64,000 bases of DNA from a virus (Duplodnaviria > Caudoviricetes): IMG/VR virus record IMGVR_UViG_3300028581_000010; one strand, written 5' to 3'. The notes below the pieces were generated by a model. That model had not been told where the DNA came from. It searched no databases and saw nothing but the letters and a program-made list of their open reading frames with translations. The position numbers and the translations under genes were made by a program. This document shows, piece by piece, positions 31,944 through 61,430 of this stretch; position 1 is the first letter of the stretch, and each line of letters begins with the position of its first letter.

Positions 31944-32549
31944 TTAGCTTAACTGCAGGCTCTTTGGTAATCCATCGCCTTCGATGGTCTTCTTGAAGCA
32001 CATGTTTGCGGCGATATGGTAGCACACGATGCCCTCAGGGTTCATGAAGCCTGGTGCGGCTGCGCTGCCGTTTTCCTTTAGCTTGGCTAGCGTATCGTCA
32101 CATGCTTCTGTTGTAAATGGTCCCCTGTATAACACAGGCGCCAAGTGGCAGCAGGCAGGCAGCACTTCCTGGAGCTTGCTACCAACCAAAGCGGGCTCTG
32201 TGCCGTGAGCGCACCATCTGGAGACGTTGAATAGGCTCCAGCGCTTTTCCTTCATGTTGTATTTTCTCTGAATACCCAAGCCCCACCATTCTCCAAAGTG
32301 GCGGCCAGGCCCAAGAGTAATGAGCTCGTCACGGTGCTCTGTTACCCAGCGGGCAAACCCAGCATTATCATCCTGAGGTGTAATCCACCTCGTACGGGAG
32401 CCGATCAACAGCTTGCCCTCGTCAGTGATGTACACACAGGCGTTGGTCCCATCGATTTTTTCACTAATTATTACTTCTCTTGACAATCTCGCCATCTTTG
32501 GGAAAGCAAGAAACTCGTCATTTATTGTTGTTTGATTTGTGTTTTCCAT
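31944..32549 (-). CDS. RNA ligase (Rnl2-like adenylyltransferase domain only)
   Basis: EKIDGTN, GSRTRWI, FGEWWG, PEGIV, FKKT. Confidence 0.85.
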   Translation of the reverse strand: MENTNQTTINDEFLAFPKMARLSREVIISEKIDGTNACVYITDEGKLLIGSRTRWITPQDDNAGFARWVTEHRDELITLGPGRHFGEWWGLGIQRKYNMKEKRWSLFNVSRWCAHGTEPALVGSKLQEVLPACCHLAPVLYRGPFTTEACDDTLAKLKENGSAAAPGFMNPEGIVCYHIAANMCFKKTIEGDGLPKSLQLS

Positions 32550-32991
32550 GTCCTGTTTTACGATCTCGTGTTCTTATTCTATGGCAGTTGGCGCAAACTA
32601 AGTCACACTTGTCTAGTTCCATCTGGATTAGCTCTCGGCTATAATGGTGTGCAAACATAGTACCAACATTGTACTTTTTCTTTGCACCGCGGCAGTGATC
32701 AAAGTCCATGCAGCATGTTGGGAACTTTCCGCCGCAGTCTATGCACACCTTAGATTTTAGCTCTATCATCCACGTTTTGAGTGCCTTAGCCTTATCCCCC
32801 TCCTCTCGCCAGTTCCCCTCTGCAGCGTAACGCCTTGCACGATATTTTCGTACTGCTTCATTAAGCTTATCTCTATTGTTTTTCCTCCAATACTTGTGTC
32901 GGCAACGTGCAGAGCAGAATTTTGGCGGATGACTACGATATTTGCGTACTGACTTATTTAAGCATTCGGGGCATATTAGCGTTATTTCCAT
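32518..32991 (-). CDS. HNH homing endonuclease
   Basis: CIDCG...MDFDH...ELDKCDLVCANCHRIRT; start set at MEITL from the promoter position. Confidence 0.85.
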   Translation of the reverse strand: MEITLICPECLNKSVRKYRSHPPKFCSARCRHKYWRKNNRDKLNEAVRKYRARRYAAEGNWREEGDKAKALKTWMIELKSKVCIDCGGKFPTCCMDFDHCRGAKKKYNVGTMFAHHYSRELIQMELDKCDLVCANCHRIRTRDRKTGHGKHKSNNNK

Positions 32992-32997
32992 ATATGC

Positions 32998-33026
32998 ATT
33001 ATGGTTCAAACGCTAAATTATGTCAA
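32998..33026 (-). promoter_or_regulatory. sigma70-like promoter (leaderless HNH transcript)
   Basis: TTGACA-17-CATAAT, ATG 7 nt downstream. Confidence 0.7.
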
Positions 33027-33043
33027 TAAGTATTTGGGCTTAA

Positions 33044-33775
33044 CTAGACTAGTAGTTTTTTGTAGGCCCTCTTACAGATGTCGACTGCGACATCAGTGTC
33101 GAAGGTCATTACAACACCTGGGGCTTTTCTAGCCTCGTCGAATTCGTTCATGGCTCCTGTCGCCCAGACCTGCAGCTCCTCCACACTGAATAGCTCAGGG
33201 TTTGTTCTTATCTTAAGTAGTTGGTCCGCCAATGCAGGCTTCCACTTGCGCACATGCACAGGATAGACACCGGTTCTTAGAAACTCAGCGCTGCATAGCA
33301 ATATGCGTATAGCGTGCGCTACGTTCTTCGGAGAGAAGCCGTATTTGGCTAGGAGCTCTTTTCTACTCGCGCCTAGGTCACCAGCCTTCTGGCCGAAGCC
33401 CACCATGATCTCGTTTGAGGCATACCCCATCGAGGCATGGCCGTAGTGGTTGGTGTCTATGAGCTGCGACCTGTGTTGGAGTATGTCCTTCAGCACGTCG
33501 CTGCTATAGAGCCACGTATCGTTGAACATCAGCTCGACGGTCTTGACCGTTGATCTGCGACACAGATGTAGAAAGTGGCGCAGTTCCCAGTACGACTCGT
33601 TCTCCGTTGTAGTGTTGTGCACCCAGCTATCGTCTGTGGCTAGGCCGAACAGTGCGCCTGGTTTGTCTGTGAGGTATATACCAGCATAGTCATGATCGCT
33701 GTCCTCGGTATTGATCCCATACATTCGAGATCCGTTTAGGTAAAGTCCTACGTAATTAAGTTTTTCATTTGGCAT
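33044..33775 (-). CDS. RlaP-like (Pol beta superfamily) nucleotidyltransferase
   Basis: GSRMYGINTEDSDHDYAGIY (GS...DxD), E-x-x-x-F, KNVAHAIRIL. Confidence 0.8.
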   Translation of the reverse strand: MPNEKLNYVGLYLNGSRMYGINTEDSDHDYAGIYLTDKPGALFGLATDDSWVHNTTTENESYWELRHFLHLCRRSTVKTVELMFNDTWLYSSDVLKDILQHRSQLIDTNHYGHASMGYASNEIMVGFGQKAGDLGASRKELLAKYGFSPKNVAHAIRILLCSAEFLRTGVYPVHVRKWKPALADQLLKIRTNPELFSVEELQVWATGAMNEFDEARKAPGVVMTFDTDVAVDICKRAYKKLLV

Positions 33776-33817
33776 ATTGTCAATAGCTAAGACTTGCTCG
33801 GTGCAGACTACAATGCT

Positions 33818-34321
33818 TTATGGCTCTTGTAGTAAATACTGCGTCATCTCTTCGATCGAGTAGCAAATCACACCGTTGTAACCAAAACAGGCAGCTCGAA
33901 CGATAACTTCTTGCCCGTATTGGTAGGTCATAGGAAAGCCGACCACCAGCTTCTGCTTTACAGCGTCCACTTCATGGGACTCGCTGACACACTCCTGCCT
34001 TTGTAAAATAGCACCTAGCTCAAACATAGCCAGGTCTTTACAAAAGTCATCCTCGAACCACAGCACTACAGTAGATGCGCTCTTGCATCTCTTGTGCTGC
34101 CATTCTATATCCGTGTACTGCTCCTCCGCGGTCTGACGATGCAGAACCTGCCAAGTGGGTTTGGGTACATAGATTGTTGTTGCGGTGTGTTGCAACCCTC
34201 CGTTGACTAGCCTGTCTCTCCAGTTGTCTTCCACATACTGTGAGGGGCTGCCGCCTAGGTATATTGTCTTAGGAAATCTCGCCTTCTCGTAGTTCGGGCT
34301 TACTATTATCTGTGCTATCAT
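33818..34321 (-). CDS. Nucleoside 2-deoxyribosyltransferase-like protein
   Basis: TIYLGGS...WRD...EWQH...VVLWF...MFELGA. Confidence 0.7.
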   Translation of the reverse strand: MIAQIIVSPNYEKARFPKTIYLGGSPSQYVEDNWRDRLVNGGLQHTATTIYVPKPTWQVLHRQTAEEQYTDIEWQHKRCKSASTVVLWFEDDFCKDLAMFELGAILQRQECVSESHEVDAVKQKLVVGFPMTYQYGQEVIVRAACFGYNGVICYSIEEMTQYLLQEP

Positions 34322-34709
34322 GATTGAATATTATGCGCATGTGATTGTCGAGTATATTTGAGGCCTCTTCCTTGGTTACCCATAGAAAGCTGTCCAGCTC
34401 GGGCTCGCCGTTAGGGCACAAGGCTATGCACCTTATATCCTCGGGGACCTCCTGCAGCTCTGCAGCAAATACGACAATCTCCTTCTTGTGGCGCTTGGTT
34501 GTGTAGCGCATTATCGGCGTTACACCAATGTCGCCAGGCTGGAGAGTTATGTTCGTCTCCTCCTTGAGCTCACGCAGGGCAGTCTCGGCCTCTGTCTCGC
34601 CTTCCTCTTGCTTACCTTTAGGTATGCTGTAGCTCTTGAAAGTACCGCTGGCTCTACCCAGCAGGTACTTGTCCTTCACCTTCAGCAGAACCCCACACGA
34701 CTTTATCAT
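34269..34709 (-). CDS. Nudix hydrolase
   Basis: Nudix box GKQEEGETEAETALRELKEETNI. Confidence 0.9.
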   Translation of the reverse strand: MIKSCGVLLKVKDKYLLGRASGTFKSYSIPKGKQEEGETEAETALRELKEETNITLQPGDIGVTPIMRYTTKRHKKEIVVFAAELQEVPEDIRCIALCPNGEPELDSFLWVTKEEASNILDNHMRIIFNHDSTDNSKPELREGEIS

Positions 34710-35499
34710 TTTTGTATTTGATTATGTTGATGGTACCGTTTTCGATTGTCAGATACTCCTCACCCAGAGTATCTATGAAGTAGCCGTTAGCGATGCTATC
34801 CTTCTTGTTTGGAAACCAGCTCTGTACCACGTGCCTGTTCGGCGTATGGCCCATGATCTGGTCAATGCCGCGGATTGGTGTGAACTGTGTCATGTGTAGC
34901 CAGTACGGCCCGCCATGACCAGGTTCTCCGCACCTGTAGCCTTGATACATGAAGTGATGGTAGCCGCTCTTCTCCGCCGCTTCGCGCCACCTCGGCTCCT
35001 GCTTCTTCATCTCAAAGAGATGCTCGTCCACAGTGAGGTCCATCAGGTGCCTAAACTTGCCACCCTTCTTCACGTACTCCATGTGGCGGAATCCGTATAG
35101 GTTGGCTAGCGTGAAGCCTGCGTGGCTTATGACTATGGGCCGCTCGTCTCTACCGCGTTGAATCTCGTAGTAGAGCCTCAGCTGCCGGAAGTCCAGCTCG
35201 TTTATAATGCTTCGTATGGCCCTGTTCTTCTCTGGGCTGTATCCTGGACACCACAACGCACTATTATGACAGAAGGCGTAGGCTGCGTCGTGGTTGCCTA
35301 GGAGATGTATGCGGTTTGGCCTGGTAAGAGACCTCTTGAGCCAGTTGGCCGTCTTTCTTGCTATGTGCTCGTCATCTCCCCAGCCGTCGAAGTAGTCACC
35401 ACAAAATATGATCTTGTGAGTGTCCTCGTACTTGGAAGCAACGTGCTCAGCCGCATCTATTCTGTTGTGTATGTCTCCGTATACGAGGTACTTATCCAT
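34654..35499 (-). CDS. Calcineurin-like metallophosphoesterase
   Basis: GDIHN, GDYFD, GNHD, SHAG, GHTP. Confidence 0.9.
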   Translation of the reverse strand: MDKYLVYGDIHNRIDAAEHVASKYEDTHKIIFCGDYFDGWGDDEHIARKTANWLKRSLTRPNRIHLLGNHDAAYAFCHNSALWCPGYSPEKNRAIRSIINELDFRQLRLYYEIQRGRDERPIVISHAGFTLANLYGFRHMEYVKKGGKFRHLMDLTVDEHLFEMKKQEPRWREAAEKSGYHHFMYQGYRCGEPGHGGPYWLHMTQFTPIRGIDQIMGHTPNRHVVQSWFPNKKDSIANGYFIDTLGEEYLTIENGTINIIKYKNDKVVWGSAEGEGQVPAG

Positions 35500-42324: not shown

Positions 42325-43383
42325 TTATTCCTCTGGTGTCTCTAGCAGTCTACGTGCCTGTTCCCGTGACAACCCTGCTATGGGGTTGGCTGGCAGCTTA
42401 GAAGCCTTTTTAGGGGCAACTGGGGCCGCAGGCTTGGGTGCTGAGAATGTGGGCTTCGCGACCTCGAAGTCGTCTTCCTCCTTAACTTCTTCCTCCACTA
42501 CACGCACAGGAGGGCTGACGTAGTCAACTTCTTGCTCTTCCTCGTATTCAGGTTCCGGCGGTCTAGCCAGAGGTTTCCTCGCAGGTGCCTTAGGGGCTAC
42601 CTTGATGACCTCTCTGGGCAAACCATCATAACCATCCATGCACTCGTTAAATACCTCACGCGAGTACATTTTGCGCAATCCTGCAATGATCTCTTCCGTG
42701 CTCTTGAACTGGAGTACGTCGTCCAAGTTATACAGATAGTCCGCATCTGCGAGCTTATCTGGTAGCTTGATCGCTTGACTTGGATCAGGTGCGATCGACC
42801 ACGGGTTGGAGCTATTCTCTTTCAGCTTCACGTGTACCGCTAGACAGCGCTCGGGATCATTGATGAGCGGGCGGTCATTACCATGCAGATCTTTCTCTGC
42901 CAGCCAGTTATGGAGCGAGTCCGCACCATTCTTTAGCGGTAGGTCGAGGACGTGGGCCCCTGCCTTTAGGTTGTTTGCGAACGCGACATTATATAGCACG
43001 CGCTGCGTGATTCTCCCGAAGTTGGGATACTTCTTGAACTTCTTACCATTCACATCTACCTCGCCTACAGCGGCTTCATCTGGATAGAGTAGCTTGAAGT
43101 TATTTGCAAAGTACTCGGCTGGATCTTCCGCCTTGTTGAGTACGATATATTTCTCTTTGTAGTTGTCGCCGAAGTTATCACGAATCGTGATCACCTTGAA
43201 CCACACACCGTTGCCGGCACCGTCATCTGTATAGCCGGGCAGGAAGTAAAGATATGCACCTTCCTGGTTTGTTGTCTTATTGAATACCGCGCGGCGCACA
43301 CCCTCGCGGATATACTGCGCACTATTGGAGCCTAACTGCATTTCCGACCCCTGGAATGTTTTCGATGGTTTTATAATCGCCAT
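42325..43383 (-). CDS. Probable single-stranded DNA-binding protein (gp32-like position and architecture)
   Basis: Adjacent to the recombinase; aromatic-rich core and acidic/Pro-rich tail. Confidence 0.55.
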   Translation of the reverse strand: MAIIKPSKTFQGSEMQLGSNSAQYIREGVRRAVFNKTTNQEGAYLYFLPGYTDDGAGNGVWFKVITIRDNFGDNYKEKYIVLNKAEDPAEYFANNFKLLYPDEAAVGEVDVNGKKFKKYPNFGRITQRVLYNVAFANNLKAGAHVLDLPLKNGADSLHNWLAEKDLHGNDRPLINDPERCLAVHVKLKENSSNPWSIAPDPSQAIKLPDKLADADYLYNLDDVLQFKSTEEIIAGLRKMYSREVFNECMDGYDGLPREVIKVAPKAPARKPLARPPEPEYEEEQEVDYVSPPVRVVEEEVKEEDDFEVAKPTFSAPKPAAPVAPKKASKLPANPIAGLSREQARRLLETPEE

Positions 43384-43528: not shown

Positions 43529-43544
43529 TCAATGTATTATACCA
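43529..43544 (-). promoter_or_regulatory. TGGTATAATACATTGA promoter motif overlapping the E1 stop codon
   Basis: Identical 16-mer to 23676-23691. Confidence 0.55.
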
Positions 43545-44142
43545 TCAGAATCTTTTTATCTGTGCGTTGACCACGCAGATAATTCAGGAAGGTTTGTAGC
43601 ATCATACCTGAGATGATGATGGGCAATGCATGCGAGATGTTCTCCTCTTTCTCCCATGCGAGCAGGCAGCCGCCTGTCTCCTTCGAGTCGTCGATGTACG
43701 GCTCCAGCTGGTTCTTAGGCAGTTCCGAGTTGAACAGCGCACCGGTACGTGACGTACAGCGGCCGTCGATCCAGAACGGAGCATCCTTGCCATGCTTCCA
43801 GCCATAGTTGTAGAGCATCTTGCGGAACTCCATGGAGTCCACACACGAGAACACAACATCATATTTCTTCAAGTCCTTCTCAGTCATGAATTTGGTGATA
43901 CCATTGACCACGAACTTCTCCTCGAGCACCTTCACCTTATGCTTGCCGACATCGTCGAGCGTAAAGCGCTGGTGCAGCAGGTTGGATGTATCCACAACGT
44001 CGTCGTCATAGATGTCAACCTCCATGCCGGAGTAGTCAAACTGCTTTCTGTTGTAGCCGTAGTCGAACAGGACCGCAAGCAAATTGCTTCCAATCCCTCC
44101 CGCTCCAGCAATGCCGATTTTCTTGATTTTCTTAATGTCCAT
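43537..44142 (-). CDS. E1/ThiF-family adenylyltransferase
   Basis: GAGGIGS, DDDVVDTSNLLHQ, GKHKV, SCVDS, WIDGR, candidate catalytic Cys in TGGCLL; no CxxC Zn pairs. Confidence 0.9.
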   Translation of the reverse strand: MDIKKIKKIGIAGAGGIGSNLLAVLFDYGYNRKQFDYSGMEVDIYDDDVVDTSNLLHQRFTLDDVGKHKVKVLEEKFVVNGITKFMTEKDLKKYDVVFSCVDSMEFRKMLYNYGWKHGKDAPFWIDGRCTSRTGALFNSELPKNQLEPYIDDSKETGGCLLAWEKEENISHALPIIISGMMLQTFLNYLRGQRTDKKILMV

Positions 44143-44581
44143 TTGATAGGAGAGCCTCCATGGAGCTCTTGGGTAGATAGTAAATGTACAGGTCCTCGTA
44201 GGCCTCACCCATCCACTCGGAAGCAGAATAGTATCCGCGCTCCGTAGCATAGATGTAGTTGTACTTGAACCCCATAAACAGTTTGTTTAGGTCCAGCGAG
44301 CTTGGAGACGGGCTGAACGACGGGTGAGTGTGAAAGCTGCCGTGCAACTTCCATCCTTCCTGCACACGCGGTACGATCAGCTCACCGAAGTCTCCCTCGT
44401 GGGCCTCATATAGCCCAAGCGCTGTGGTCGAACCTGTGTATATGTTACGCAACTTGACAAACTCGAAGTCTTCGTCGCGATGCAGGAGTAATCCGCCCTC
44501 TTCTTCCGAGGACTTGCTGCACAGAGCAGCTGCTCTGTATAATTCTTGGGCTAGGTTGTAACTGATTCTTTCTCTAAGCAT
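44132..44581 (-). CDS. JAB/MPN+ metallo-isopeptidase
   Basis: EEEGGLL (catalytic Glu); FHTHP...PSSLD JAMM motif. Confidence 0.85.
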   Translation of the reverse strand: MLRERISYNLAQELYRAAALCSKSSEEEGGLLLHRDEDFEFVKLRNIYTGSTTALGLYEAHEGDFGELIVPRVQEGWKLHGSFHTHPSFSPSPSSLDLNKLFMGFKYNYIYATERGYYSASEWMGEAYEDLYIYYLPKSSMEALLSNGH

Positions 44582-44643
44582 TATAGGTTTGGTTGTTGGT
44601 TATGCTGGGCCGCGGAGTCTCACCACGGCCCAGCCTGTCTCGT

Positions 44644-45021
44644 TTAGTACGCAGGGTATTCCTGCTTCTTGTGAACACCCATCTCTCCAAGGTGCTCATC
44701 GCCCAGTCCTTCCGGGTCAAACTCCTCGTCGTCGAATGCTGTGTCCCGTATTGGGTCGAACAGCAAGGCTTCGATGTCAGGATCGTCCATAATCTCCTTG
44801 TCAGCATTCTCGAGCTCCACAGCCACCGGCTGCAGTACGCTGGCATCTTCTTCTGCCGCGTAGATGCGATCCAACGCCTTCTCGAGGAACAACGCCAAGG
44901 CGTTCTCCACTTCGACTGGGTTGGTCTGCAGCCGCTCAAGCGCCTGTGTTATGGTTAGGGTTTCATCCAAGGCTGCTGTAAGCACCTCGGCCAATAGGTC
45001 GTCTTGTATTTCGATTTGCAT
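44644..45021 (-). CDS. Hypothetical highly acidic protein
   Basis: 125-aa ORF, coupled to the upstream gene; GC hairpin follows the stop. Confidence 0.65.
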   Translation of the reverse strand: MQIEIQDDLLAEVLTAALDETLTITQALERLQTNPVEVENALALFLEKALDRIYAAEEDASVLQPVAVELENADKEIMDDPDIEALLFDPIRDTAFDDEEFDPEGLGDEHLGEMGVHKKQEYPAY

Positions 45022-47213
45022 TATGCTGGAATTAGGTTGTCTTTAATCTTAGCGATGTCTTCGATAACTGCGTCATCCGGCAGGGCAGCGAGAGCTGCAA
45101 GGCCGTTGTCACGTTCAGGGTGATAGTCATCGTGGGCGTTCTCAGCACCTGGCTGAGCATGACCCTTGAGCGTACCGATCTTGTTCTGAACTGCAGAATC
45201 ATTCTTTAGGGCGAGTAGCCGAGAAGCGATGTCATCGTAGCCAGCACCTTTGTAGTGATAGTCATTGACGATACATCTGTATTGCTGAGTGTCATAGTCA
45301 TACACCTTAGCATTCTCAACCACAACTGCATACTTGCGCAGCTTGCCTTGGACGATATACGCGTCCTTGCCCTTGAACTTCTCCATCACGGCACCAGTCA
45401 TCTTGATCGCAGCGTTCAAGAACTCCTTCGAGCGCTCGATAGCCTTGCTCTTGTTCTCGATAACCAGACCAACCACTTTCTCAATGTCCTTGAGTGTGAT
45501 CTTTGCCTTAACGACTTTGTTGCCGTCCTCATCCTTGGTAGTCTCGGACGTGGTATCGATCAGTGCCTGAGCGGTCTCCTTCCTGGCCCACTCGAAGTCA
45601 CGACGTTTGTAATCGTAGCCCTGGCGGCCGTACTGATTGTTCGTGCGCTTGTTGACGCTGTTGACCTTGGCAATGAGCGAGCGCAGCGATACACGCAGGC
45701 TACGTTCCTTATCAACCTCCAGCATGATGTGATGCTTCTCCGCATCGAAGTAGAACTTGAGCGCAGGTGCATTCAGCCCTGGTATCTCGTCGTTGTACTC
45801 ATCGTTCGTGATGTTCTTGTGAATCTTCACCGGCAGCCCGTTAGCGATGACGTCATGCCACTTGATGGACATGCGACTGGTCGCCTTGAGGAACAGCTTG
45901 TAGTCCTCTGCACTGCGGTAGCAGGACGCACGATGGATAACCTGCCCAATCTCGTCCTTGTTGATGCGCGTTCCGTTAACCTTGCGCTGGTGATCCTTCG
46001 TAATGGAGGCCTCGATGTCGATGCCGTTGATCTTGATTGCCGGTAGCTTGTACTCCTTGGGAGCCTCTTCGCCGGCTTTCTTCGCGGTAAACGCGTCAGC
46101 AGGGAGTGCTCCGTTGGCGAGCTTCGCCGTCAGCTCTCCACCAACCAGGTCGACGATCGTGTAGATGTCGAACTCGCCGTTGAAGTTCAGCTTGTTGTAG
46201 AGCACGTCGATCAGGTTTGGATACTCGACCGATACGTTCTCATATGTAGCTGTATCTTGCTTGATGGTGATGTCGTTGATCTTGATCTGCTGGATCTCAC
46301 CTGCCTTGAGCTTACCCACGACCACGAGGTTGGAGCTTCTGCGGTAGTCGTTCTCCATCTTTACATGGGCAGCGGCATACGCCTCCTTAACCTTCTTGGT
46401 CAGCTTCTTTTCCATACGCAGGCGTAGAATATCTCCGTCGTGCGAGTTGATGAAGCACTTCTTAACAAGCAGCTTGGTCAGCGCAGGCTGCAGCAAGCAC
46501 ATCAGCATGATGTGGGCTGTGTTGATGTCGTAGTTGTTCGTGACAATATACGACGGCTTGCCTAGCCGTGTTGCCGATGGCGCCTTCATGAGGAAGAAGC
46601 CCTTGTCTAGGTAGTCGTACAGCGGCTCAGTCTCCTTCACCATCATACACAGCATCGGAGAGTCACCGGAGTAGCTCACCTCAGTCCTGTTTGTGTCGAA
46701 GTGCTGACCTGTCAGAATACGATATGTATTTCCCTTGGACAGATGCTCAATAGGCTCGTGCTGAATCAGCGTCGGCGTATAGGCGATGTCCAGCTCCTGT
46801 GGCACCAGCTTGATGCTCTTGTGCAGGGCCGGTAGATCTTTCCGAATGTGCGTCAGCGTGAGGTTCTTCTGCGGAGCAGGGTAGTTCGTATTGGTGTTCT
46901 CATAGAACCCGCGTACGCCATACTCCACACCTCCGCCACCAGCGCTCTTGCGAATCTTGTCAGGAAGCTCCCTGTCGGCGGTTGTGAGCTTTAAATTGTG
47001 CAGAAACAGCGGTGAGCCGCCTGCTGCGAAGTATGCATGCATCTTGTGCGCGTCGGCAAAAGAGGCAGCCTCGAGATACAACACGTGAGATAGCCCGCCC
47101 TGCACTGTGTTGTTGTACTTAAAGTCAAAAACTACAGCGCCGTCAGACAACGCCCCTGAGGACTTGCTGAACGAGCTGATTAGCTTTTTAAATTCTGGTA
47201 ATGTTAATTTCAT
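45021..47213 (-). CDS. Large (730 aa) hypothetical protein of the Ubl module
   Basis: C-terminal YIVQGKLRKY...QYRCIV...RLLALKND segment resembles a conserved domain found at the C-termini of DUF4132-type proteins (by recall). Confidence 0.75.
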   Translation of the reverse strand: MKLTLPEFKKLISSFSKSSGALSDGAVVFDFKYNNTVQGGLSHVLYLEAASFADAHKMHAYFAAGGSPLFLHNLKLTTADRELPDKIRKSAGGGGVEYGVRGFYENTNTNYPAPQKNLTLTHIRKDLPALHKSIKLVPQELDIAYTPTLIQHEPIEHLSKGNTYRILTGQHFDTNRTEVSYSGDSPMLCMMVKETEPLYDYLDKGFFLMKAPSATRLGKPSYIVTNNYDINTAHIMLMCLLQPALTKLLVKKCFINSHDGDILRLRMEKKLTKKVKEAYAAAHVKMENDYRRSSNLVVVGKLKAGEIQQIKINDITIKQDTATYENVSVEYPNLIDVLYNKLNFNGEFDIYTIVDLVGGELTAKLANGALPADAFTAKKAGEEAPKEYKLPAIKINGIDIEASITKDHQRKVNGTRINKDEIGQVIHRASCYRSAEDYKLFLKATSRMSIKWHDVIANGLPVKIHKNITNDEYNDEIPGLNAPALKFYFDAEKHHIMLEVDKERSLRVSLRSLIAKVNSVNKRTNNQYGRQGYDYKRRDFEWARKETAQALIDTTSETTKDEDGNKVVKAKITLKDIEKVVGLVIENKSKAIERSKEFLNAAIKMTGAVMEKFKGKDAYIVQGKLRKYAVVVENAKVYDYDTQQYRCIVNDYHYKGAGYDDIASRLLALKNDSAVQNKIGTLKGHAQPGAENAHDDYHPERDNGLAALAALPDDAVIEDIAKIKDNLIPA

Positions 47214-47245
47214 TGGTTAGGTTGGTCTCCATGCCTCGGCATGAT

Positions 47246-47279
47246 AAAACAAAAAGGGTGGGGAAGTTATCCCCACCCT
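47246..47279 (-). terminator. Intrinsic terminator after the Ubl gene
   Basis: AGGGTGGGGA-TAACT-TCCCCACCCT then TTTTGTTTT. Confidence 0.8.
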
Positions 47280-47370
47280 CTTGTTCAAAAACTCACCCCC
47301 GATTACGCATAGCTGCTTGATACAGCCAGAGGCGGGGGGTGACGTAGTCAGTGGCCCTTAGGGCCGTACA

Positions 47371-47667
47371 TTAGAGCTTGTACAGAGCTGTGTAGAAGTC
47401 GTACGCCTCCTGGGCAGTACCACCAACCAGCACACCAGTCAGAAGGATCATCGGATCATTCTCGGCAGCGAGCTTGTTGCGGAGCTTATTGACGTTTGCG
47501 TTGTCGCGCACGTCAGCGCCCTCGAACTCGAACTTCTCACCGTTGATGAAGACCCAGCGTTGGTTCTTCTCGGCGTTATCGCAGATTGTGTCGACGGCGG
47601 CGTCGAGTTCTAGATCTGCTACTGTGGTGTGACCAGTGCGGTCAGCGATGTCGATTTTGTATGTCAT
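47371..47667 (-). CDS. Ubiquitin-like (beta-grasp) protein with GG and a 15-aa C-terminal propeptide
   Basis: MTYKIDIADRTGHTTV...WVFINGE...MILLTGVLVGG|TAQEAYDFYTALYKL; upstream of JAB and E1. Confidence 0.7.
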   Translation of the reverse strand: MTYKIDIADRTGHTTVADLELDAAVDTICDNAEKNQRWVFINGEKFEFEGADVRDNANVNKLRNKLAAENDPMILLTGVLVGGTAQEAYDFYTALYKL

Positions 47668-48464: not shown

Positions 48465-49196
48465 TTATTTGTGGATAGGGAATCTTATATGCCGTATGGA
48501 CCCATCTTTCAGAGTTCTGTCTACGCAGGCACGGCATCTCAAACACGCACCACTATCCTTTGTGTTCTTCATCTTGCCTGTAATTTCCGGACAGACCAAC
48601 ACAGGCCTGTCGTTGAGTTGGGCAGGAAACTCGTCGCCCATGAACGCCACAGATATGTTCTTACAATCCTTATACTTCTCGTTATACTCAGCCAGCACCT
48701 CAGCTTGATTCACAGGGTCGCAGCTCAGCAGTATTGTAAGGTGCTCGCAGTCCTTCAGGGCATGGACAGCAAAAAGACTTCTGGTATACAGCCAAAACCG
48801 TATATCAGAATTCTTTTTGATGACCCTGCTCCAGGCGTGCGCATATGCGTCGTTGAATAGGTCTCCAGATGTGTGCAGCCTGAAATATGGTGAGCGGTCG
48901 CCGCCGTTTAAACGCCACTTTGTTACAGTGTTGTCCAGTATCTCAAACAGCTCCTCTGCCGTTTTATCTTGCAGTAGTGCAGTATTCTCGTCTTCAACCG
49001 CAGCGTAGCCCTTGTAGCGCTTTCGTAGAGAGGCTGCGTAGCATACCTTGAGGCAGCCACCTTTACCTTCTGTAGCACATGGACAGCTTCCTCCATCTTC
49101 TGGCTTGCCAGAACGTAAGCTGAACGTATTGAAGTGTCCGTCGTAACTTCTTACTTTTGAATTATTTGTTAATTTTAATGACTTGTATTTTTCCAT
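48465..49196 (-). CDS. Gp88-like (radical-SAM-related) protein
   Basis: FSL...SCP...GCLKVCYA, YFRLHTSGD, FWLYTRS. Confidence 0.75.
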   Translation of the reverse strand: MEKYKSLKLTNNSKVRSYDGHFNTFSLRSGKPEDGGSCPCATEGKGGCLKVCYAASLRKRYKGYAAVEDENTALLQDKTAEELFEILDNTVTKWRLNGGDRSPYFRLHTSGDLFNDAYAHAWSRVIKKNSDIRFWLYTRSLFAVHALKDCEHLTILLSCDPVNQAEVLAEYNEKYKDCKNISVAFMGDEFPAQLNDRPVLVCPEITGKMKNTKDSGACLRCRACVDRTLKDGSIRHIRFPIHK

Positions 49197-49296: not shown

Positions 49297-49737
49297 ATGA
49301 TAGACCCCCTCTTTGCTAGGCTTGGAGGCTATAATGCGCGAGGCATAAAGCCCACCACGCGACAATTTACATCTAAGTTTGTTGGAGTGCGCTGGCACAC
49401 ACAAAGAAAAAAGTGGCAAGCATATATTAGCTTAGGGAAGAAGCAGCTGCACCTCGGTATGTACGCCACAGAGGATGAAGCCGCCCGCGCATATGATAAA
49501 GCTACATTGCTTTTTGTGAAAACCGGCGTCATTAACCTTAACTTCAGTAAAAAGGACTATGCCGCGCTTGATCTAGCGGCATGGTACGCCTCCATTCAGC
49601 GTACATATACCTCCAAGCATAAACACGTTAGTTTCTGCCACACTCATAAGCGCTGGCTTGTAAAATACCCTCCAACGAAGGTGCGCCGCTTCAAAACGGA
49701 GGCTGAGGCAGTTAGCTATGCCTCTACCCTAGCTTAA
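49297..49737 (+). CDS. AP2-domain protein, probably a decayed homing endonuclease
   Basis: SKFVGVRWHTQRKKWQAYI...HLGMYATEDEAARAYDKA; no intact nuclease domain; opposite strand to its neighbours. Confidence 0.75.
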   Translation: MIDPLFARLGGYNARGIKPTTRQFTSKFVGVRWHTQRKKWQAYISLGKKQLHLGMYATEDEAARAYDKATLLFVKTGVINLNFSKKDYAALDLAAWYASIQRTYTSKHKHVSFCHTHKRWLVKYPPTKVRRFKTEAEAVSYASTLA

Positions 49738-52460
49738 TCATCCCACACCCATAGCCCGTTCTTAAAATCCCACTTGGTAGCTTTGTCGAATACCGCATCT
49801 TTCCCTTTCCAAGCGTTCGCAGCTACTATCTCGCAGCCAAGCGCGTCGCCGGTGACCAGCCGCACTTTATCGCAAAACATATACTTTAAAACCTCCGGAA
49901 AGTAGTTGTCTTTAAACAGAGCTTTGTGCACTATCCATATTGCTGCGTCATGAATAGTGTTAACTGGATACACGTATTTCATCCAGAGCCCTTCTTTTTT
50001 TAAAAAGGTCCTTAACTGCACTAAAGCATCCCATAGGTAGCAGGCGAGCTCTGATGCTATAGGAAATGCAAGAGATTCATTCAGCCAACCGGCTTTGATG
50101 CCGAAGTTGTCTGTATCCTCGTACAGCAAGCGCATTCCTCGCGCATTGGTTATACGGTTGTGTGCCTCCACTTCATGTGTACACTCCTCACGGTACGCCA
50201 TGTAGCGCTCATACCTTCTCCAGGTACCTAGCGCATATTTGATTGTTTCGATGTCCACCATCAGCCCGTTCTCGGCATAGATGTCTGCCTTGATAGGCTC
50301 GGCAGCAAAGTCTAGTCCTGCTGTGTAGGACACGCGGAATGTAATCCCCTTCGAGATAACATACTTGGCGATATCCTTCTTTGTCAGCTCCGGATCGTTG
50401 AAGTACTCCCGCATCTTTGTTTGGTGGAAGTTGCCCGCACGTATGTCTGCAATGAACAGCGGGTCTTGTGAGATAAACGCCATGATAGCAAGGTCTGCTC
50501 CTGCTATGTCTAGCTCCACCCAGTGAAAGTCAGGGTCTCCTGGGTAGAAGATCTGCCTGATGTTGTTGGGTAGGAACTTCTCCGCGGCCTTTAACTCTGA
50601 GCCGGAGAGCTTCGATATGCCTGGCACAAATATCTCTGGTATATACGACAAAACCTTCGAAGCAGGATTCTGTACGTTAGGCGAGCTCGACGACCTAAAG
50701 TTTTTCAAGAGCTCGAAGAACGAGGCATGTATTCTACCATCTTTTGCGATCGCTGCCCAGTAACTTTGCTTTAAAGGAACCTCCAGATTAGCTAGCTCCT
50801 CCTCGTCGTCCTCTTCCTCTTCCTGCTCAACATCTAGTACCAAACCCTTCTTGGATAAGAACTTAGTGGCAAAGACGCTTACTCGGTTGAAGTTAAGCAT
50901 CAACGAGATGAGATCTAATTTATCTTGTAGGTCTCTATTATGTGGCATGAATTCCAGTTGTTCAGCCAGATTAAACTTGATCGTCGCCAGTGACTTACCG
51001 TTCGACGACGGCGCAAATTGCGCCTGTATGTTTTTCTTCTGCTTGTTGTACCAAGCAGCAGATTTCGGGGATTTGCCGGCCTTAGTGTAATACGCAGGCT
51101 CTAATTCCAAGGTTTTGAACAGAAGCTCTCTTTTCTGTATCGACGAGTTCGGGTTGAACTCCTCTATACCGTAGCGCTCCTTGAGCAATCCCGCGAGCTG
51201 CATCTTCAGCTCCATGTACTTCTCCATGTACTTGTTAGTGACGTCATCGAGAAGTTCCTTATCCACTGGTATGCCGGTATACTCCATGTCTGTGAAGTAA
51301 CTCGTCAGCGGAAGATATACGTTGAAATAGTAATCCTGTAAATGCTCGGGAAAGGCACGCATCATCTTGAGGCAGGCCCTGCGGTGAGATACTGCGTCAC
51401 CAGCACAATAATCATAGTAGACTTCTGGCTCGAGAAATTTCATCTTGGCCATCTCTTTCTTATTGATCTTATGCTCCTTCATCTTTCTAGCAAACTCGAC
51501 GTAGTAGGGCTTGTAGCTGGTGAACAGCCTAATGCCGGTCTCCAACCCTTTACCTAGTCGTGAGTCAAAGAAGGCCACTGCCTTCATGCCGTCGAACGCC
51601 AGCGTTTCATCTGGAAGCTTGAAGCCTCTATGCATGAGCCGCAGGTCGTCAGCGCGGATGTTCCATCCAAGCCTCTCTGCCTGTGGGTGCTCCAATATCA
51701 TCTTCATCGTATCGAGCAGCTCTCTGTTCTCGGTCTTACCGTCTGGAGAGATGTTCAGTATGACGGCGACGTGATCTTCACAGCTATACTGGAACTCATA
51801 CATCACTTCATCGTCAGCCCACTTCTCACCACACCACTCAGCGTCATACCCAATCTTAAACGCACCCTTGTCGATGTAGTCTTGAAGAATCTTCTTGTTC
51901 TCCTCTGGGTCGTTGATGATCCTGTACGTGTAGGGCACGAAGTGCAGGTCGTCGTCGAGCAGTCGTGTGACCATCTCGAAGCTTCTCCGGAACGCGGGTC
52001 TCTTTGTCGGGTCCTGTGCAACAATGAATCCTGGGGCATAGGTAGGCATGAGCTTACCGTAGGGTGAGTCAACAAACTCACCTATGTAGTCGCCCATCTT
52101 GATGTTGGTCTTCATCATTCGCTTGAATACCTCTGCCCCTAGAGTAATGATCACTTTTGGGTTTACATCCTTGACCTCCTGGTCGAACTCCTCTGCAAAG
52201 AACTCTATGTCCTCTGCTGTGGGTTTCTTACCTGCTCCCAACCCACATTTAACCATTCCAGTGAAGTAGACCTTCTCCTGTGGAATGCCAGCCAGATCCA
52301 GTGCTTGGTGCACCTCTGCTGCTGCAAACCCTGCCACACCAAATGCACGCTCTGTTAGGTCATCTGGACTAGGGTGTGAGAAGACTACCATTACCTCAGC
52401 CTCCTCAGGGTCGCCGTTAGGCTCCACTCTTACTTTATCCTCTATAGGTATTCCTGCCAT
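49734..52460 (-). CDS. Family A DNA polymerase with N-terminal uracil-DNA glycosylase-like domain (SPO1-type)
   Basis: UDG4-like N-terminus (VKC..., PKVIITLG); exonuclease YDAE, DAVSH; polymerase motifs LDIAGAD, KGITF...Y, IHDA. Confidence 0.9.
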   Translation of the reverse strand: MAGIPIEDKVRVEPNGDPEEAEVMVVFSHPSPDDLTERAFGVAGFAAAEVHQALDLAGIPQEKVYFTGMVKCGLGAGKKPTAEDIEFFAEEFDQEVKDVNPKVIITLGAEVFKRMMKTNIKMGDYIGEFVDSPYGKLMPTYAPGFIVAQDPTKRPAFRRSFEMVTRLLDDDLHFVPYTYRIINDPEENKKILQDYIDKGAFKIGYDAEWCGEKWADDEVMYEFQYSCEDHVAVILNISPDGKTENRELLDTMKMILEHPQAERLGWNIRADDLRLMHRGFKLPDETLAFDGMKAVAFFDSRLGKGLETGIRLFTSYKPYYVEFARKMKEHKINKKEMAKMKFLEPEVYYDYCAGDAVSHRRACLKMMRAFPEHLQDYYFNVYLPLTSYFTDMEYTGIPVDKELLDDVTNKYMEKYMELKMQLAGLLKERYGIEEFNPNSSIQKRELLFKTLELEPAYYTKAGKSPKSAAWYNKQKKNIQAQFAPSSNGKSLATIKFNLAEQLEFMPHNRDLQDKLDLISLMLNFNRVSVFATKFLSKKGLVLDVEQEEEEDDEEELANLEVPLKQSYWAAIAKDGRIHASFFELLKNFRSSSSPNVQNPASKVLSYIPEIFVPGISKLSGSELKAAEKFLPNNIRQIFYPGDPDFHWVELDIAGADLAIMAFISQDPLFIADIRAGNFHQTKMREYFNDPELTKKDIAKYVISKGITFRVSYTAGLDFAAEPIKADIYAENGLMVDIETIKYALGTWRRYERYMAYREECTHEVEAHNRITNARGMRLLYEDTDNFGIKAGWLNESLAFPIASELACYLWDALVQLRTFLKKEGLWMKYVYPVNTIHDAAIWIVHKALFKDNYFPEVLKYMFCDKVRLVTGDALGCEIVAANAWKGKDAVFDKATKWDFKNGLWVWDD

Positions 52461-57191: not shown

Positions 57192-59255
57192 CTATAGACG
57201 CAGGACGTTGTCAACAGCATCTTCCAATGCTGGATCGTGGTCAATTACTATGATCTGTTTCAACTTGCTCATGTTTTTGAGGTTACGTATGATGTCAAAG
57301 TATTGTTTTTTTGCTGAAGGAGCCAGCCCGTCGGAGCCCTCGTCTACAATCATAAACGGAAAGGATCCACCGAACAGCTCGTGAACGGCTAGCCGCATAC
57401 TCATGCCGACCATAACTTCCTGTCCCCCTGATACAGAGGGCAGTTTGTTACCGGACGAGTCGAATACGTCTATACCGAAGTTATCATTGACTTCCACCGT
57501 ATAAGGGAAGTCGAACGCCGTTAGTATGTTACTCATGCCGACAGACACGTTATTGGCGTATGTCTGAATGAGTAGCCTGGGCAACTTAGATGTGTGGAGC
57601 ACATCGTAGATCTCCTCAAGTACCTTAGCGTAGCGCTGTCTGCGCGCATTGATCTTCACGTCTGTGGCGTGCTTCTCTATCAGGCTGTCGAGCTTATCCA
57701 GCTCTCTCAGTGTCACAGACTCCTGTACCACAAGCTCGGAGCGCTGCTTGTTTTGCTCCTTATACCTAGCTAGCCGTGCCTCGACGCTGAGCAGCTCCGC
57801 ATGCGCGGTGGTGTCTCTGTTGTCGTACGCTGTCGTGCCTGCCAGCTCCACAGTAATGTTCACCTTATGGTTCTCTTCGTTGCGCAACTCAGCCTCAAGC
57901 CTATTCTTCTTCTCTAGCAGCTTGTCGAACACGCCTAGAGTATCGGCGTATTCCTTGTGCGTGTCTGCGTCATACTCGAGGTCTTCAAGAGCATCTAGAG
58001 ATGATTGCTTCTCGCGCCACGAGTTCTGCAGCTGATCCAGTATAGTCAGGTTACGCTTCATTATCTCCAAAGCACGCTTATCGTTCTCAAGCTGCGCTCT
58101 TAGCTCGGAGCCATGGGCCTGCTGCTTAGCAAGGTCCTCCTGTATGTGCGCGATCACGGTTTTGAGATCGTGTATCTCGCTACCACAAGTAGGGCAGGAT
58201 TCAACTTCTGCGCTAAGCCCTTTGCTAGCGTAGCCAGCGAGTCTATCCTTGTCCTTGTTGTACTGCGCCCGAAGTGCAGTTAATATAGCCTCGTCGCCAC
58301 GGATCTTCTGGTCCAAGACAGCGTACTCATCGCGCGTCTGTTCTGTAGCTTCGCATTCAGCCAATCCGCGCTCAATGTTACGCATCGACGCCTGCAAGGC
58401 CTCTTTCTTAGCTACTCTAGGCTTCAGTAGGTCCAGCGTGTAGACCTCCTTCTTGATCAGCTCGTGCTGCTCGGCGTTGTAATAAGCGGACACGGCGGTG
58501 ACCTCCGCCTGCAGCTGCGCAATGGTTTCCTCTAAGCGCGCCAAGCTAGCTTCATGAATGGCTACTGTGAATTCCGACCCAAGGCACTTTTGCAGATAGG
58601 CCTGGCGCACCAACGCCTCCTCCATATCTACTGTGTTATCAGGTGTTGCGGCGAGCTGCGCACGTATAGCAGTCAATGAGGCGGTTGTCTGTGTCTTGGT
58701 CTGCTCCAACGAGCCTGTGGGATGCACTGGTATAAGCGGCGGGGCATTCTTGATGTAATCCTTCCAGACTATATCCCTGAGCCTGGTTGTGTTGGGGACC
58801 ATGAAGATCTTCTGAAAGAGCTTCTCTCTTACAGCAGCATCTCCTGAGAACAGTAGCGCGATGTCTTTCTGCTTGGAGATAACCACGTTCTTCATGATGT
58901 GCTTGTCTATCTGAAACAAGCTATCCCAGAGATCGTTGACCTCGCCGGACTTCTTCAACACCTTGCCATCGTACTTCAAGCTAACCTTGGATGTGTCCAG
59001 GTGTCGCTCGAGAATAGCCAGCTTGCCGTTGATCTTGAAGTGGCCAATGGCGTAGCCGGTGACCTCACCTGTGGTGATGACCGACTGCTTGCTCTCTCCG
59101 TAGTAATCCCCTGTGAGCAGGAACAGAATAGCTTCTACGATACTAGACTTTCCTGCTCCGTTTGTTCCGGAAATACCGGTAACACCGCTTGAGAAATTAA
59201 ACTCCGCCTTGCGATGGTTGCGGAAGTTTCTAAGTATCAGTTTCAGCAGTTCCAT
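57192..59255 (-). CDS. SbcC/Rad50/gp46-like SMC ATPase
   Basis: GTNGAGKSS, Zn hook CPTCG, signature VSGGQ, Walker B IVDEGSDGL, VIDHD. Confidence 0.92.
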   Translation of the reverse strand: MELLKLILRNFRNHRKAEFNFSSGVTGISGTNGAGKSSIVEAILFLLTGDYYGESKQSVITTGEVTGYAIGHFKINGKLAILERHLDTSKVSLKYDGKVLKKSGEVNDLWDSLFQIDKHIMKNVVISKQKDIALLFSGDAAVREKLFQKIFMVPNTTRLRDIVWKDYIKNAPPLIPVHPTGSLEQTKTQTTASLTAIRAQLAATPDNTVDMEEALVRQAYLQKCLGSEFTVAIHEASLARLEETIAQLQAEVTAVSAYYNAEQHELIKKEVYTLDLLKPRVAKKEALQASMRNIERGLAECEATEQTRDEYAVLDQKIRGDEAILTALRAQYNKDKDRLAGYASKGLSAEVESCPTCGSEIHDLKTVIAHIQEDLAKQQAHGSELRAQLENDKRALEIMKRNLTILDQLQNSWREKQSSLDALEDLEYDADTHKEYADTLGVFDKLLEKKNRLEAELRNEENHKVNITVELAGTTAYDNRDTTAHAELLSVEARLARYKEQNKQRSELVVQESVTLRELDKLDSLIEKHATDVKINARRQRYAKVLEEIYDVLHTSKLPRLLIQTYANNVSVGMSNILTAFDFPYTVEVNDNFGIDVFDSSGNKLPSVSGGQEVMVGMSMRLAVHELFGGSFPFMIVDEGSDGLAPSAKKQYFDIIRNLKNMSKLKQIIVIDHDPALEDAVDNVLRL

Positions 59256-61046: not shown

Positions 61047-61430
61047 TTAAACAGGCAGTCTTCTGACTGTTTCCTCTGCTCCGGCAGGAGAATCTTCTAC
61101 GTTCTTCTTGCCAGCTTGTTTCATACGTCTTTCGCTATCCTTGGCCGCAGCCAGAATAGCGGGAAAGCCAGGTATGTCTAACGCGGCTCCTTGTCTGACC
61201 TGATCGTAGCCTTCCCGCGTCTTGGAGGCCACGATGCTGTTGAACTCTGCCAATGCAGCAGCATATGAACTCGTCGTAAGCTTAAGCTGCTTGATGAGGT
61301 TCTTCATAGCACGCTTGCCGTAGTTGGCATAGACGTAGTACGCGTCGTCCACCTGCAGCAATTCGACGATATAAACTTTATCGCTACTACCTGCCTTGTA
61401 ATGCAGTATTTCTAGTTTCTTGTGTTTCAT
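61047..61430 (-). CDS. WGR-domain protein
   Basis: SSDKVYIVEL...YANYGKR...A..EF...VASKTREGY. Confidence 0.8.
   Translation of the reverse strand: MKHKKLEILHYKAGSSDKVYIVELLQVDDAYYVYANYGKRAMKNLIKQLKLTTSSYAAALAEFNSIVASKTREGYDQVRQGAALDIPGFPAILAAAKDSERRMKQAGKKNVEDSPAGAEETVRRLPV

Follow-up and report, generated by a model that had tools for sequence, protein, structure and literature searches.

A ubiquitin-like cassette among the replication genes of a giant lake-water phage: a candidate conjugation pathway with a DUF7737-like cysteine domain

IMG/VR record IMGVR_UViG_3300028581_000010 raises the question of why a phage would carry candidate genes for ubiquitin-like modification in the midst of the genes that replicate its DNA. 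The window, by which we mean the whole stretch of DNA that was analyzed, is a 64-kb part of a phage contig of ~215 kb; an identical 730-amino-acid (aa) protein is encoded on a contig of 215,276 bp, and the stretch is present in lake-water metagenomes from 11 studies. Its source is a giant lake-water phage in which a cassette for a Ubl (ubiquitin-like protein) is placed among DNA-replication genes. Five co-oriented minus-strand open reading frames (ORFs), with coordinates checked by translation, lie at 43537-47667, and four of them form the core of the cassette: the genes for the Ubl, a large partner protein, a JAB peptidase and a ThiF-type E1 enzyme. From the genes, their motifs, their conservation and synteny, and the predicted folds, we infer a pathway of Ubl maturation, adenylation and transfer to Cys647 of the 730-aa protein. 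We give this reading about an even chance of being correct, and its chemical steps, the role of Cys647 and the target are put conditionally throughout. The features of the locus are listed here from upstream to downstream.

47371..47667, minus strand: Ubl precursor, 98 aa, with a predicted beta-grasp fold, a GG and a 15-residue tail.
47252..47282, minus strand: terminator-like hairpin located between the genes for the Ubl and the 730-aa protein, its 13-bp stem being followed by a T tract; a consensus match only.
45021..47213, minus strand: 730-aa partner protein, a distant DUF4132/DUF7737 relative by weak signals, with invariant Cys431 and Cys647.
45114..45500, minus strand: DUF7737-like C-terminal domain of the partner protein (residues 572-700), with the invariant Cys647 and the YRCIV motif.
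44644..45021, minus strand: acidic protein, 125 aa, accessory and outside the conserved core.
44132..44581, minus strand: JAB/JAMM metallopeptidase, 149 aa (Pfam Prok-JAB).
43537..44142, minus strand: minimal ThiF-type E1, 201 aa (Pfam ThiF), sharing 11 nucleotides with the end of the JAB gene.

Ten related loci from metagenomic phages (L001-L007, L026, L042 and L043) were examined in detail. The Ubl, the large protein and the JAB were encoded in all ten, and the E1 was found wherever the contig extended far enough. Nine of the loci belong to the same broad phage group and share the order polymerase, GP88, a variable position, Ubl, large protein, a second variable position, JAB and E1, followed by an optional small protein, a protein of ~340 aa and RecA. 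The remaining locus, L026, comes from a different phage type with a ribonucleotide reductase, a dUTPase, a sigma factor and a shorter polymerase, and its gene order is changed to large protein, Ubl (ending in LVGG before the stop codon), JAB and E1. The acidic protein, for which no family match was obtained, had a homologue in L004 only. It is missing from L002/L003 and L007 and is replaced in L001 and L006, its slot outside the window and L004 being either empty or taken by an exonuclease-like or Cys-rich gene. Therefore, we dropped the acidic protein from the core, which was thereby reduced to four genes. A preliminary description of the window had proposed a five-gene module; the five co-oriented ORFs in the replication region were borne out, but the five-gene unit was not, as the acidic protein is accessory. 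Given 44 Ubl clusters, 92 clusters and, in a separate search, 491 representatives of the large protein, and the retained gene order, the cassette is far beyond chance, and sequence comparison indicates conservation of the gene set in hundreds of phage lineages. Megablast and tblastn searches of 50,697 GenBank phage records returned no match to the module, the 730-aa protein or the E1, and a scan of IMG/VR with the 730-aa protein confirmed nothing.

Of the cassette proteins, the Ubl shows the highest conservation (44 homologue clusters at 90% clustering, with identities of 53-82%), which is expected for a modifier that touches several partners. Its C-terminus reads LVGG followed by TAQEAYDFYTALYKL, with the codons of Gly82-Gly83 at 47424..47419. 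In a 32-sequence alignment, Gly82-Gly83 was invariant and the stretch behind it was unconserved, ranging from no tail at all (P0136) up to ~40 residues; in two more distant loci, a whole extra domain followed the GG (~105 aa in L001 and ~160 aa in L043). The AlphaFold2 model (predicted local distance difference test, pLDDT, 82; predicted template-modeling score, pTM, 0.73) has the topology bb-a-bb-a-b, which is the beta-grasp order, and renders the tail as a low-confidence helix. Foldseek matches of this model in the PDB were mostly ubiquitin and weak (E ~0.02). The fold neighbors included ubiquitin, UBL, PB1 and ThiS, and the Ubl of a solved bacterial E1-E2-Ubl complex (8tyz_B) was among the weak matches. 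In the ESM-Atlas, three small viral protein clusters came first (template-modeling score, TM, 0.57-0.78; root-mean-square deviation ~2 Å), followed by the ThiS, Ub-RnfH and ubiquitin families. These results agree with the preliminary description, which had suggested a beta-grasp protein with a di-glycine masked by an extension and had named a different fold or an unconserved GG as grounds for dropping the idea; the modeled topology fits a beta-grasp with ubiquitin, UBL and ThiS as the nearest folds, and the GG is conserved. In our putative mechanism, the Ubl would be made as a precursor that extends beyond the GG, either as a tail that differs between homologues or as an entire additional domain.

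Two further observations concern the Ubl gene. In the fusions (L001:7396-7944 and L043:4254-4988), the Ubl is joined directly after the GG to a conserved domain with the shared motif ...VSDYNG.... This layout recalls eukaryotic ubiquitin fusion precursors, and the released domain may have a function of its own. Additionally, the hairpin behind the Ubl gene suggests that the Ubl transcript could be more abundant than that of the downstream enzymes.

The removal of such extensions would fall to the JAB, which matched Pfam Prok-JAB (E 1.5e-7). Its JAMM site is complete, with E27 and H84-x-H86-x7-S94-x2-D97 invariant in seven sequences from the window and related loci. The best NCBIfam match was a weak one to desampylase, and weak Cap3 matches were obtained as well. 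We propose that the JAB would cut the Ubl precursor after the GG, exposing Gly83, and would also reverse adducts. The JAB gene is kept in loci where the Ubl already ends at the GG (L002/3, L006 and L026). Therefore, trimming cannot be its sole role, and the comparison of loci suggests that it probably detaches the Ubl from adducts too. The intact JAMM site noted in the preliminary description was thus seen again, but maturation as the only role of the enzyme could not be upheld.

The E1 matched Pfam ThiF (E 7.7e-18), and its identity across the related loci was 52-70%. The most likely start, judged from sequence, is the ATG at 44142 (MDIKKIKKIGIAGAGG, 201 aa), because all homologues begin with M-x-x-x-K-I-x-I-A-G-A-G-G; the alternative start at 44250, which gives a 237-aa ORF, is probably unused and was rejected. 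Seven aligned sequences share the GxGGxG motif, the DDD strand end, NLLHQ, K70, D103, C130 and C160, the last of these in a loop (GGCLL); no CxxC zinc pairs were present in this alignment. The adenylation motifs and the loop Cys (GGC) pointed out at the outset are therefore conserved. The best NCBIfam model was PRTRC ThiF (TIGR03736), at 59.4 bits and below the cut-off of 144.75, and the second best was ThiF. A tblastn search against plasmids gave 46 matches, and the 15 listed were all annotated as PRTRC ThiF. MccB was the only solved E1 relative detected by sequence (E 0.004), and genome contigs scanned with the aligned E1 sequences returned only generic ThiF relatives with 25-39% identity. 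In the proposed pathway, this minimal ThiF-type E1 would adenylate the exposed C-terminal Gly of the Ubl.

The same three proteins would also fit a sulfur-carrier or other acyl-carrier pathway, the principal alternative, which we consider unlikely. In that case, the E1 would adenylate the Ubl, a host persulfide would convert it into a thiocarboxylate, and the 730-aa protein would serve as a "synthase" that could thiolate a nucleotide, tRNA or DNA base. An acyl-disulfide might arise at Cys647, like the one between ThiF Cys184 and ThiS, and the JAB could trim the precursor, by analogy with QbsD/QbsE, or free an adduct, by analogy with Mec+/CysO. The Ubl pattern is ThiS/MoaD-like and a ThiS cluster is among the nearest folds; the E1 is of the minimal ThiF/MoeB type, with ThiF as its second NCBIfam match, and no bona fide E2 was detected. 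Sulfur-carrier precursors sometimes have extra residues that are removed by a JAMM enzyme (QbsCDE, CysO/Mec), and a JAB next to a GG with a tail is known there as well. However, the phage E1 lacks a rhodanese domain, and Pfam searches of the module and ~20 flanking ORFs found no sulfur-transfer domain (rhodanese, desulfurase, ThiG, MoaE, CysM or TtuA-type) and no PP-loop partner, in line with the earlier statement that no sulfur-transfer genes lie nearby. The large protein has neither a PP-loop nor an Fe-S Cys cluster and contains only five Cys in total, the JAB is retained where the Ubl requires no trimming, and the setting is one of replication and recombination genes rather than cofactor synthesis.

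The reading of a conjugation pathway with transfer to Cys647 depends on the 730-aa protein, which by itself had no significant match in Pfam, PHROG, NCBIfam or PADLOC. It has 92 homologue clusters (90% clusters), and a HMMER profile search of 1.84 billion representatives extended the family to 491 representatives at E<=1e-3; among the 150 listed, most were 600-790 aa long and about two dozen were shorter and fragment-like. Two of its five Cys, Cys431 and Cys647, were invariant in a 44-sequence alignment, in which the C-terminal 130 residues were the best conserved. Cys647 (codon at 45275..45273, motif QYRCIVND) was kept throughout these 44 close members and in each of the eight remote ones examined, so the Cys in QYRCIV, which had been singled out from the window sequence, is invariant with remote family members included. 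Three independent lines connected the protein to bacterial DUF4132/DUF7737 proteins. Pfam DUF7737 (PF24879) gave sub-threshold matches in 41 of the 44 members (best E 9.7e-5), with the 730-aa protein itself at 13.6 bits, below the gathering cut-off of 27. For its AlphaFold2 model (pLDDT 82.6), the top two fold matches in the ESM-Atlas were DUF4132+DUF7737 clusters, and two matches in the AFDB were DUF4132 proteins, all at a TM of ~0.3. Finally, an hhalign comparison of the C-terminal domain with six bacterial DUF7737 ends gave E 0.0012, with the Cys column aligned. Sequence searches with DUF4132 (PF13569) matched neither the 730-aa protein nor its family. Since all three lines are weak, we regard the protein as a distant DUF4132/DUF7737 relative rather than a Pfam-level member; the protein had been left unassigned at first, and these signals indicate that it is not an orphan. 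Foldseek comparison of the model with the PDB gave nothing at E<=0.001, the BFVD returned unnamed viral proteins only, and a feature search of the Atlas, in which the model of this protein is poor, gave no usable match.

A bacterial counterpart of the pair formed by the Ubl and its large partner is found on chromosome II of Deinococcus radiodurans, where the gene immediately upstream of that for a 1626-aa DUF4132 protein encodes a 134-aa protein ending in LTALAGG. The DUF7737 domain of the DUF4132 protein reads ...GGFLCIVPV..., with a Cys at the same motif position as phage Cys647, and an 801-aa protein of Nonomuraea reads ...VYLCIVPE.... Four DUF7737 giants of Bacillota (from six matches in 301 genomes) had no upstream GG-ended protein and no motif Cys, and a search of 401 Desulfobacterota genomes found no DUF7737. 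The phage has both elements, a GG-ended small protein next to a DUF7737 Cys in x-C-I-V (YRCIVN). Although the sample is small, the co-occurrence of a GG-ended partner with the Cys is the pattern expected if the Ubl C-terminus and the Cys cooperate. The D. radiodurans pair is the drA0165-drA0166 operon, which belongs to the DdrO radiation/desiccation regulon and is strongly induced on DdrO depletion, and the WGR-domain proteins DR2173 and MolR have been linked to the same DNA-damage response as DRA0166 (PMC8533742).

We propose that the activated Ubl would be handed to Cys647 in the DUF7737 domain and that the 730-aa protein would be either an E2-like carrier or ligase, or the final Ubl acceptor. 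In the model, a long helix (574-606) is followed by four strands (609-639), Cys647 stands in the next loop, and helices follow at 660-675. This predicted order of elements is that of the ubiquitin-conjugating (UBC) fold, with the Cys in the loop past strand 4. VIA-align placed E2, ubiquitin E2 variant (UEV) and RWD folds in 11 of its top 50 matches, including chain D of 9eav, a weak fold match that comes from the solved BubCD-BubB-BubA complex. Among Swiss-Prot models, BRE/BABAM2, a tandem-UEV protein, occupied 13 of the top 18 rows (residues ~348-683, E 0.02-0.16).

Several observations weigh against the proposed transfer to Cys647. No Pfam or PADLOC E2 match was obtained for the Cys647 domain or its family, hhalign of the domain against Prok-E2_D (PRTRC protein B) gave 0.6% probability, and a profile of the C-terminal domain searched against PDB sequences found no E2 and nothing meaningful. 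His653, six residues past Cys647, is not retained in remote members and was therefore rejected as a universal catalytic partner of the Cys. The E2-binding and Cys domains that canonical E1s possess are missing from the phage E1, and its NLxRQ motif reads NLLHQ, with Arg changed to His in all seven sequences; in ThiF/MoeB-type enzymes, this Arg binds ATP. Sets of Ubl, E1 and JAB are also found in sulfur-carrier pathways (QbsCDE, CysO/Mec), and the inspection for sulfur enzymes covered 64 kb of the ~215-kb contig. Because no sequence method returned an E2 and His653 is lost in remote members, we treat the term "E2-like" as a reasonable hypothesis from the model rather than a result.

The lack of an E2 sequence signal would suit a further alternative, in which the E1 alone would attach the Ubl to lysines, as in the SAMP/UbaA system of archaea and TtuB/TtuC of Thermus; the 730-aa protein would be no enzyme but the main substrate or a scaffold, and its Cys would play a different role. 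Ubl conjugation without an E2 has precedent (PMC4895103, PMC9574740), and the best NCBIfam match of the JAB is desampylase. However, Cys647 does not vary even among very divergent members, and the motif Cys occurs together with a GG partner in D. radiodurans and is absent in the four examined Bacillota giants that lack the partner. The invariance of the Cys and its co-occurrence with a GG partner point to chemistry at Cys647, and we judge E2-independent conjugation to be quite improbable.

Alternatively, the cassette could serve counter-defense: the JAB would strip host Ubl conjugates made by the Bil or cyclic oligonucleotide-based antiphage signaling system (CBASS) Cap2 enzymes, with the phage Ubl and E1 serving as decoys or competitors. 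Ubl systems of bacteria have antiphage activity (PMC10097602, PMC10557695), and the JAB had weak matches to CBASS JAB/Cap3 models and the E1 to Cap2-type E1-E2 models. However, these Cap-type matches are weak and generic (E 1e-5 to 1e-2), and PADLOC models match the cassette only generically. A decoy would also leave unexplained why the large Cys protein is conserved, why the synteny with replication genes is strict in every locus, and why D. radiodurans has a homologous GG/DUF7737 pair under DNA-damage control (PMC8533742). We therefore regard this explanation as very unlikely.

Regarding the pathway that leads to Cys647, the cassette would be expressed together with the phage replication and recombination genes and would probably act on their products or on DNA-damage-type signals. 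Upstream of it lie a DNA polymerase A fused to uracil-DNA glycosylase (UDG), an AP2-type gene on the opposite strand, and genes for a GP88-family protein and for a basic 246-aa protein; downstream lie a 352-aa protein with an acidic tail and then a RecA/UvsX-like recombinase. Farther away are a DnaB-type helicase, a DEAD/ResIII helicase, an SMC/Rad50-like ATPase and a WGR-domain protein, together with NUDIX, nucleoside deoxyribosyltransferase-like and RNA ligase genes.

Some of these neighbors deserve separate description. The DNA polymerase A (49734-52460, minus strand) has counterparts in related loci with a UDG-like N-terminal domain (PF03167+PF00476), and its identity to GenBank phage polymerases is only ~25% by tblastn. 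A 146-aa DNA-binding protein of the AP2 type is encoded at 49297-49737 (plus strand), in between the polymerase gene and that of GP88; L001 has an AP2/GIY-YIG gene at the matching position, and the AP2-type gene looks like an insertion of the homing-endonuclease type. The GP88-family protein (48465-49196, minus strand; PF17338, E 3e-30) has the Cys-rich N-terminal motif CPCATEGKGGCLKVCYA, and its gene lies beside the cassette in most loci, being absent from L002/L003 and the shown part of L026. The conserved protein at 42325-43383 (minus strand) gave no family match; it always stands between the E1 and RecA/UvsX, is 335-400 aa long across the loci, ends in a C-terminal tail that is acidic and of low complexity, and may bind single-stranded DNA. 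A run of the RNA/nucleotide repair type at 31944-35499 (minus strand) comprises an RNA ligase, an RlaP nucleotidyltransferase, a nucleoside 2-deoxyribosyltransferase-like protein, a NUDIX protein and a metallophosphatase, and the pair of NUDIX and deoxyribosyltransferase genes is common to the window and L001. The stand-alone WGR protein (127 aa, 61430..61047, minus strand; Pfam WGR E 8e-5) adjoins the SMC/Rad50-like ATPase (57192-59255), and in the window separate genes at a distance of 14 kb encode the WGR protein and the DUF4132-like protein. The optional small protein after the E1 is conserved where present and is 87-116 aa long with the motif W-x-I/V-D/N-K ... P-x-Y-x-W-F; the window, L005 and L043 lack it. 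Its positions are as follows.

L001:11798-12091, L002:11465-11728, L004:12282-12632 and L007:11019-11297: post-E1 small protein.

Taking these data together, we tentatively suggest a broader interpretation, which we hold to be possible and somewhat short of even: phages of many lineages would own a complete Ubl conjugation pathway, DUF7737 would be a new E2-like class of Cys carriers shared with the DNA-damage-induced bacterial DUF4132 proteins, and the pathway would tag phage or host proteins of replication or repair. To our knowledge, Ubl conjugation in prokaryotes has so far been shown only as bacterial antiphage defense (Bil, Bub and CBASS Cap2/Cap3). If our interpretation is right, a virus-owned set of Ubl, E1 and JAB would mean that phages use Ubl chemistry too, and it would provide the first functional handle on DUF4132/DUF7737, which is widespread in bacteria and DNA-damage-induced in Deinococcus. 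Reconstitution would also be far easier with the compact phage version, whose four genes include a dedicated E1 and protease, than with the bacterial giants. An incomplete literature search found no description of a phage-encoded Ubl/E1/JAB set of this kind and no reported function for DUF4132/DUF7737 or for PRTRC.

Four known arrangements can be compared with the phage cassette. Sulfur-carrier systems with a JAMM peptidase (QbsC/D/E, CysO/Mec+/MoeZ, ThiS-ThiF and MoaD-MoeB), which are discussed in PMC1779556, share a GG-ended beta-grasp carrier and a ThiF/MoeB-type enzyme; they differ in that the ~20 flanking ORFs of the phage contain no rhodanese, desulfurase or synthase partner, the JAB persists where trimming is not required, and the surroundings are replication genes. 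The PRTRC (ParB-related, ThiF-related cassette), operon type 6d of Iyer et al. 2006 (PMC1779556), contains the closest cellular relatives of the phage E1, is likewise carried on mobile DNA (plasmids and integrative and conjugative elements), and in the layout taken from five plasmids has the colinear order Ubl, large protein, (E2), JAB and ThiF. However, the phage module and its flanking ORFs contain no ParB, PRTRC E or Prok-E2_D, and the E1 stays at the 59.4 bits noted above against the cut-off of 144.75. PRTRC B is a Prok-E2_D protein, to which the phage Cys domain shows no profile similarity; likewise, hhalign found none between this domain and PRTRC protein F or between the phage Ubl and PRTRC C.

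BilABCD, Bub (6E) and CBASS Cap2/Cap3, which represent bacterial Ubl conjugation in antiphage defense (PMC10557695, PMC11601596, PMC10097602), resemble the cassette in that a JAB is encoded together with a ThiF-type E1 that has a Cys and with a beta-grasp Ubl or another donor of a C-terminal Gly. In contrast to these, the present set is phage-encoded and lies within replication genes, has a DUF7737 Cys domain in the place of a recognizable UBC-family E2, and contains an E1 of 201 aa that is unfused to E2 or JAB and reads NLLHQ for NLxRQ. In the D. radiodurans pair, a GG-ended protein lies upstream of a Cys-DUF7737 protein, as in the phage, and hhalign gave weak but consistent values for both members, the domain aligning at E 0.0012 and the Ubl at E 0.003. 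The context is one of DNA metabolism or DNA damage in both, and the phage window also encodes a WGR protein. The differences are that the phage large protein, which falls below the Pfam thresholds and has no DUF4132 sequence match, is ~620-790 aa long compared with 800-1700 aa in bacteria, and that the phage adds a dedicated E1 and JAB and would make its Ubl as a precursor.

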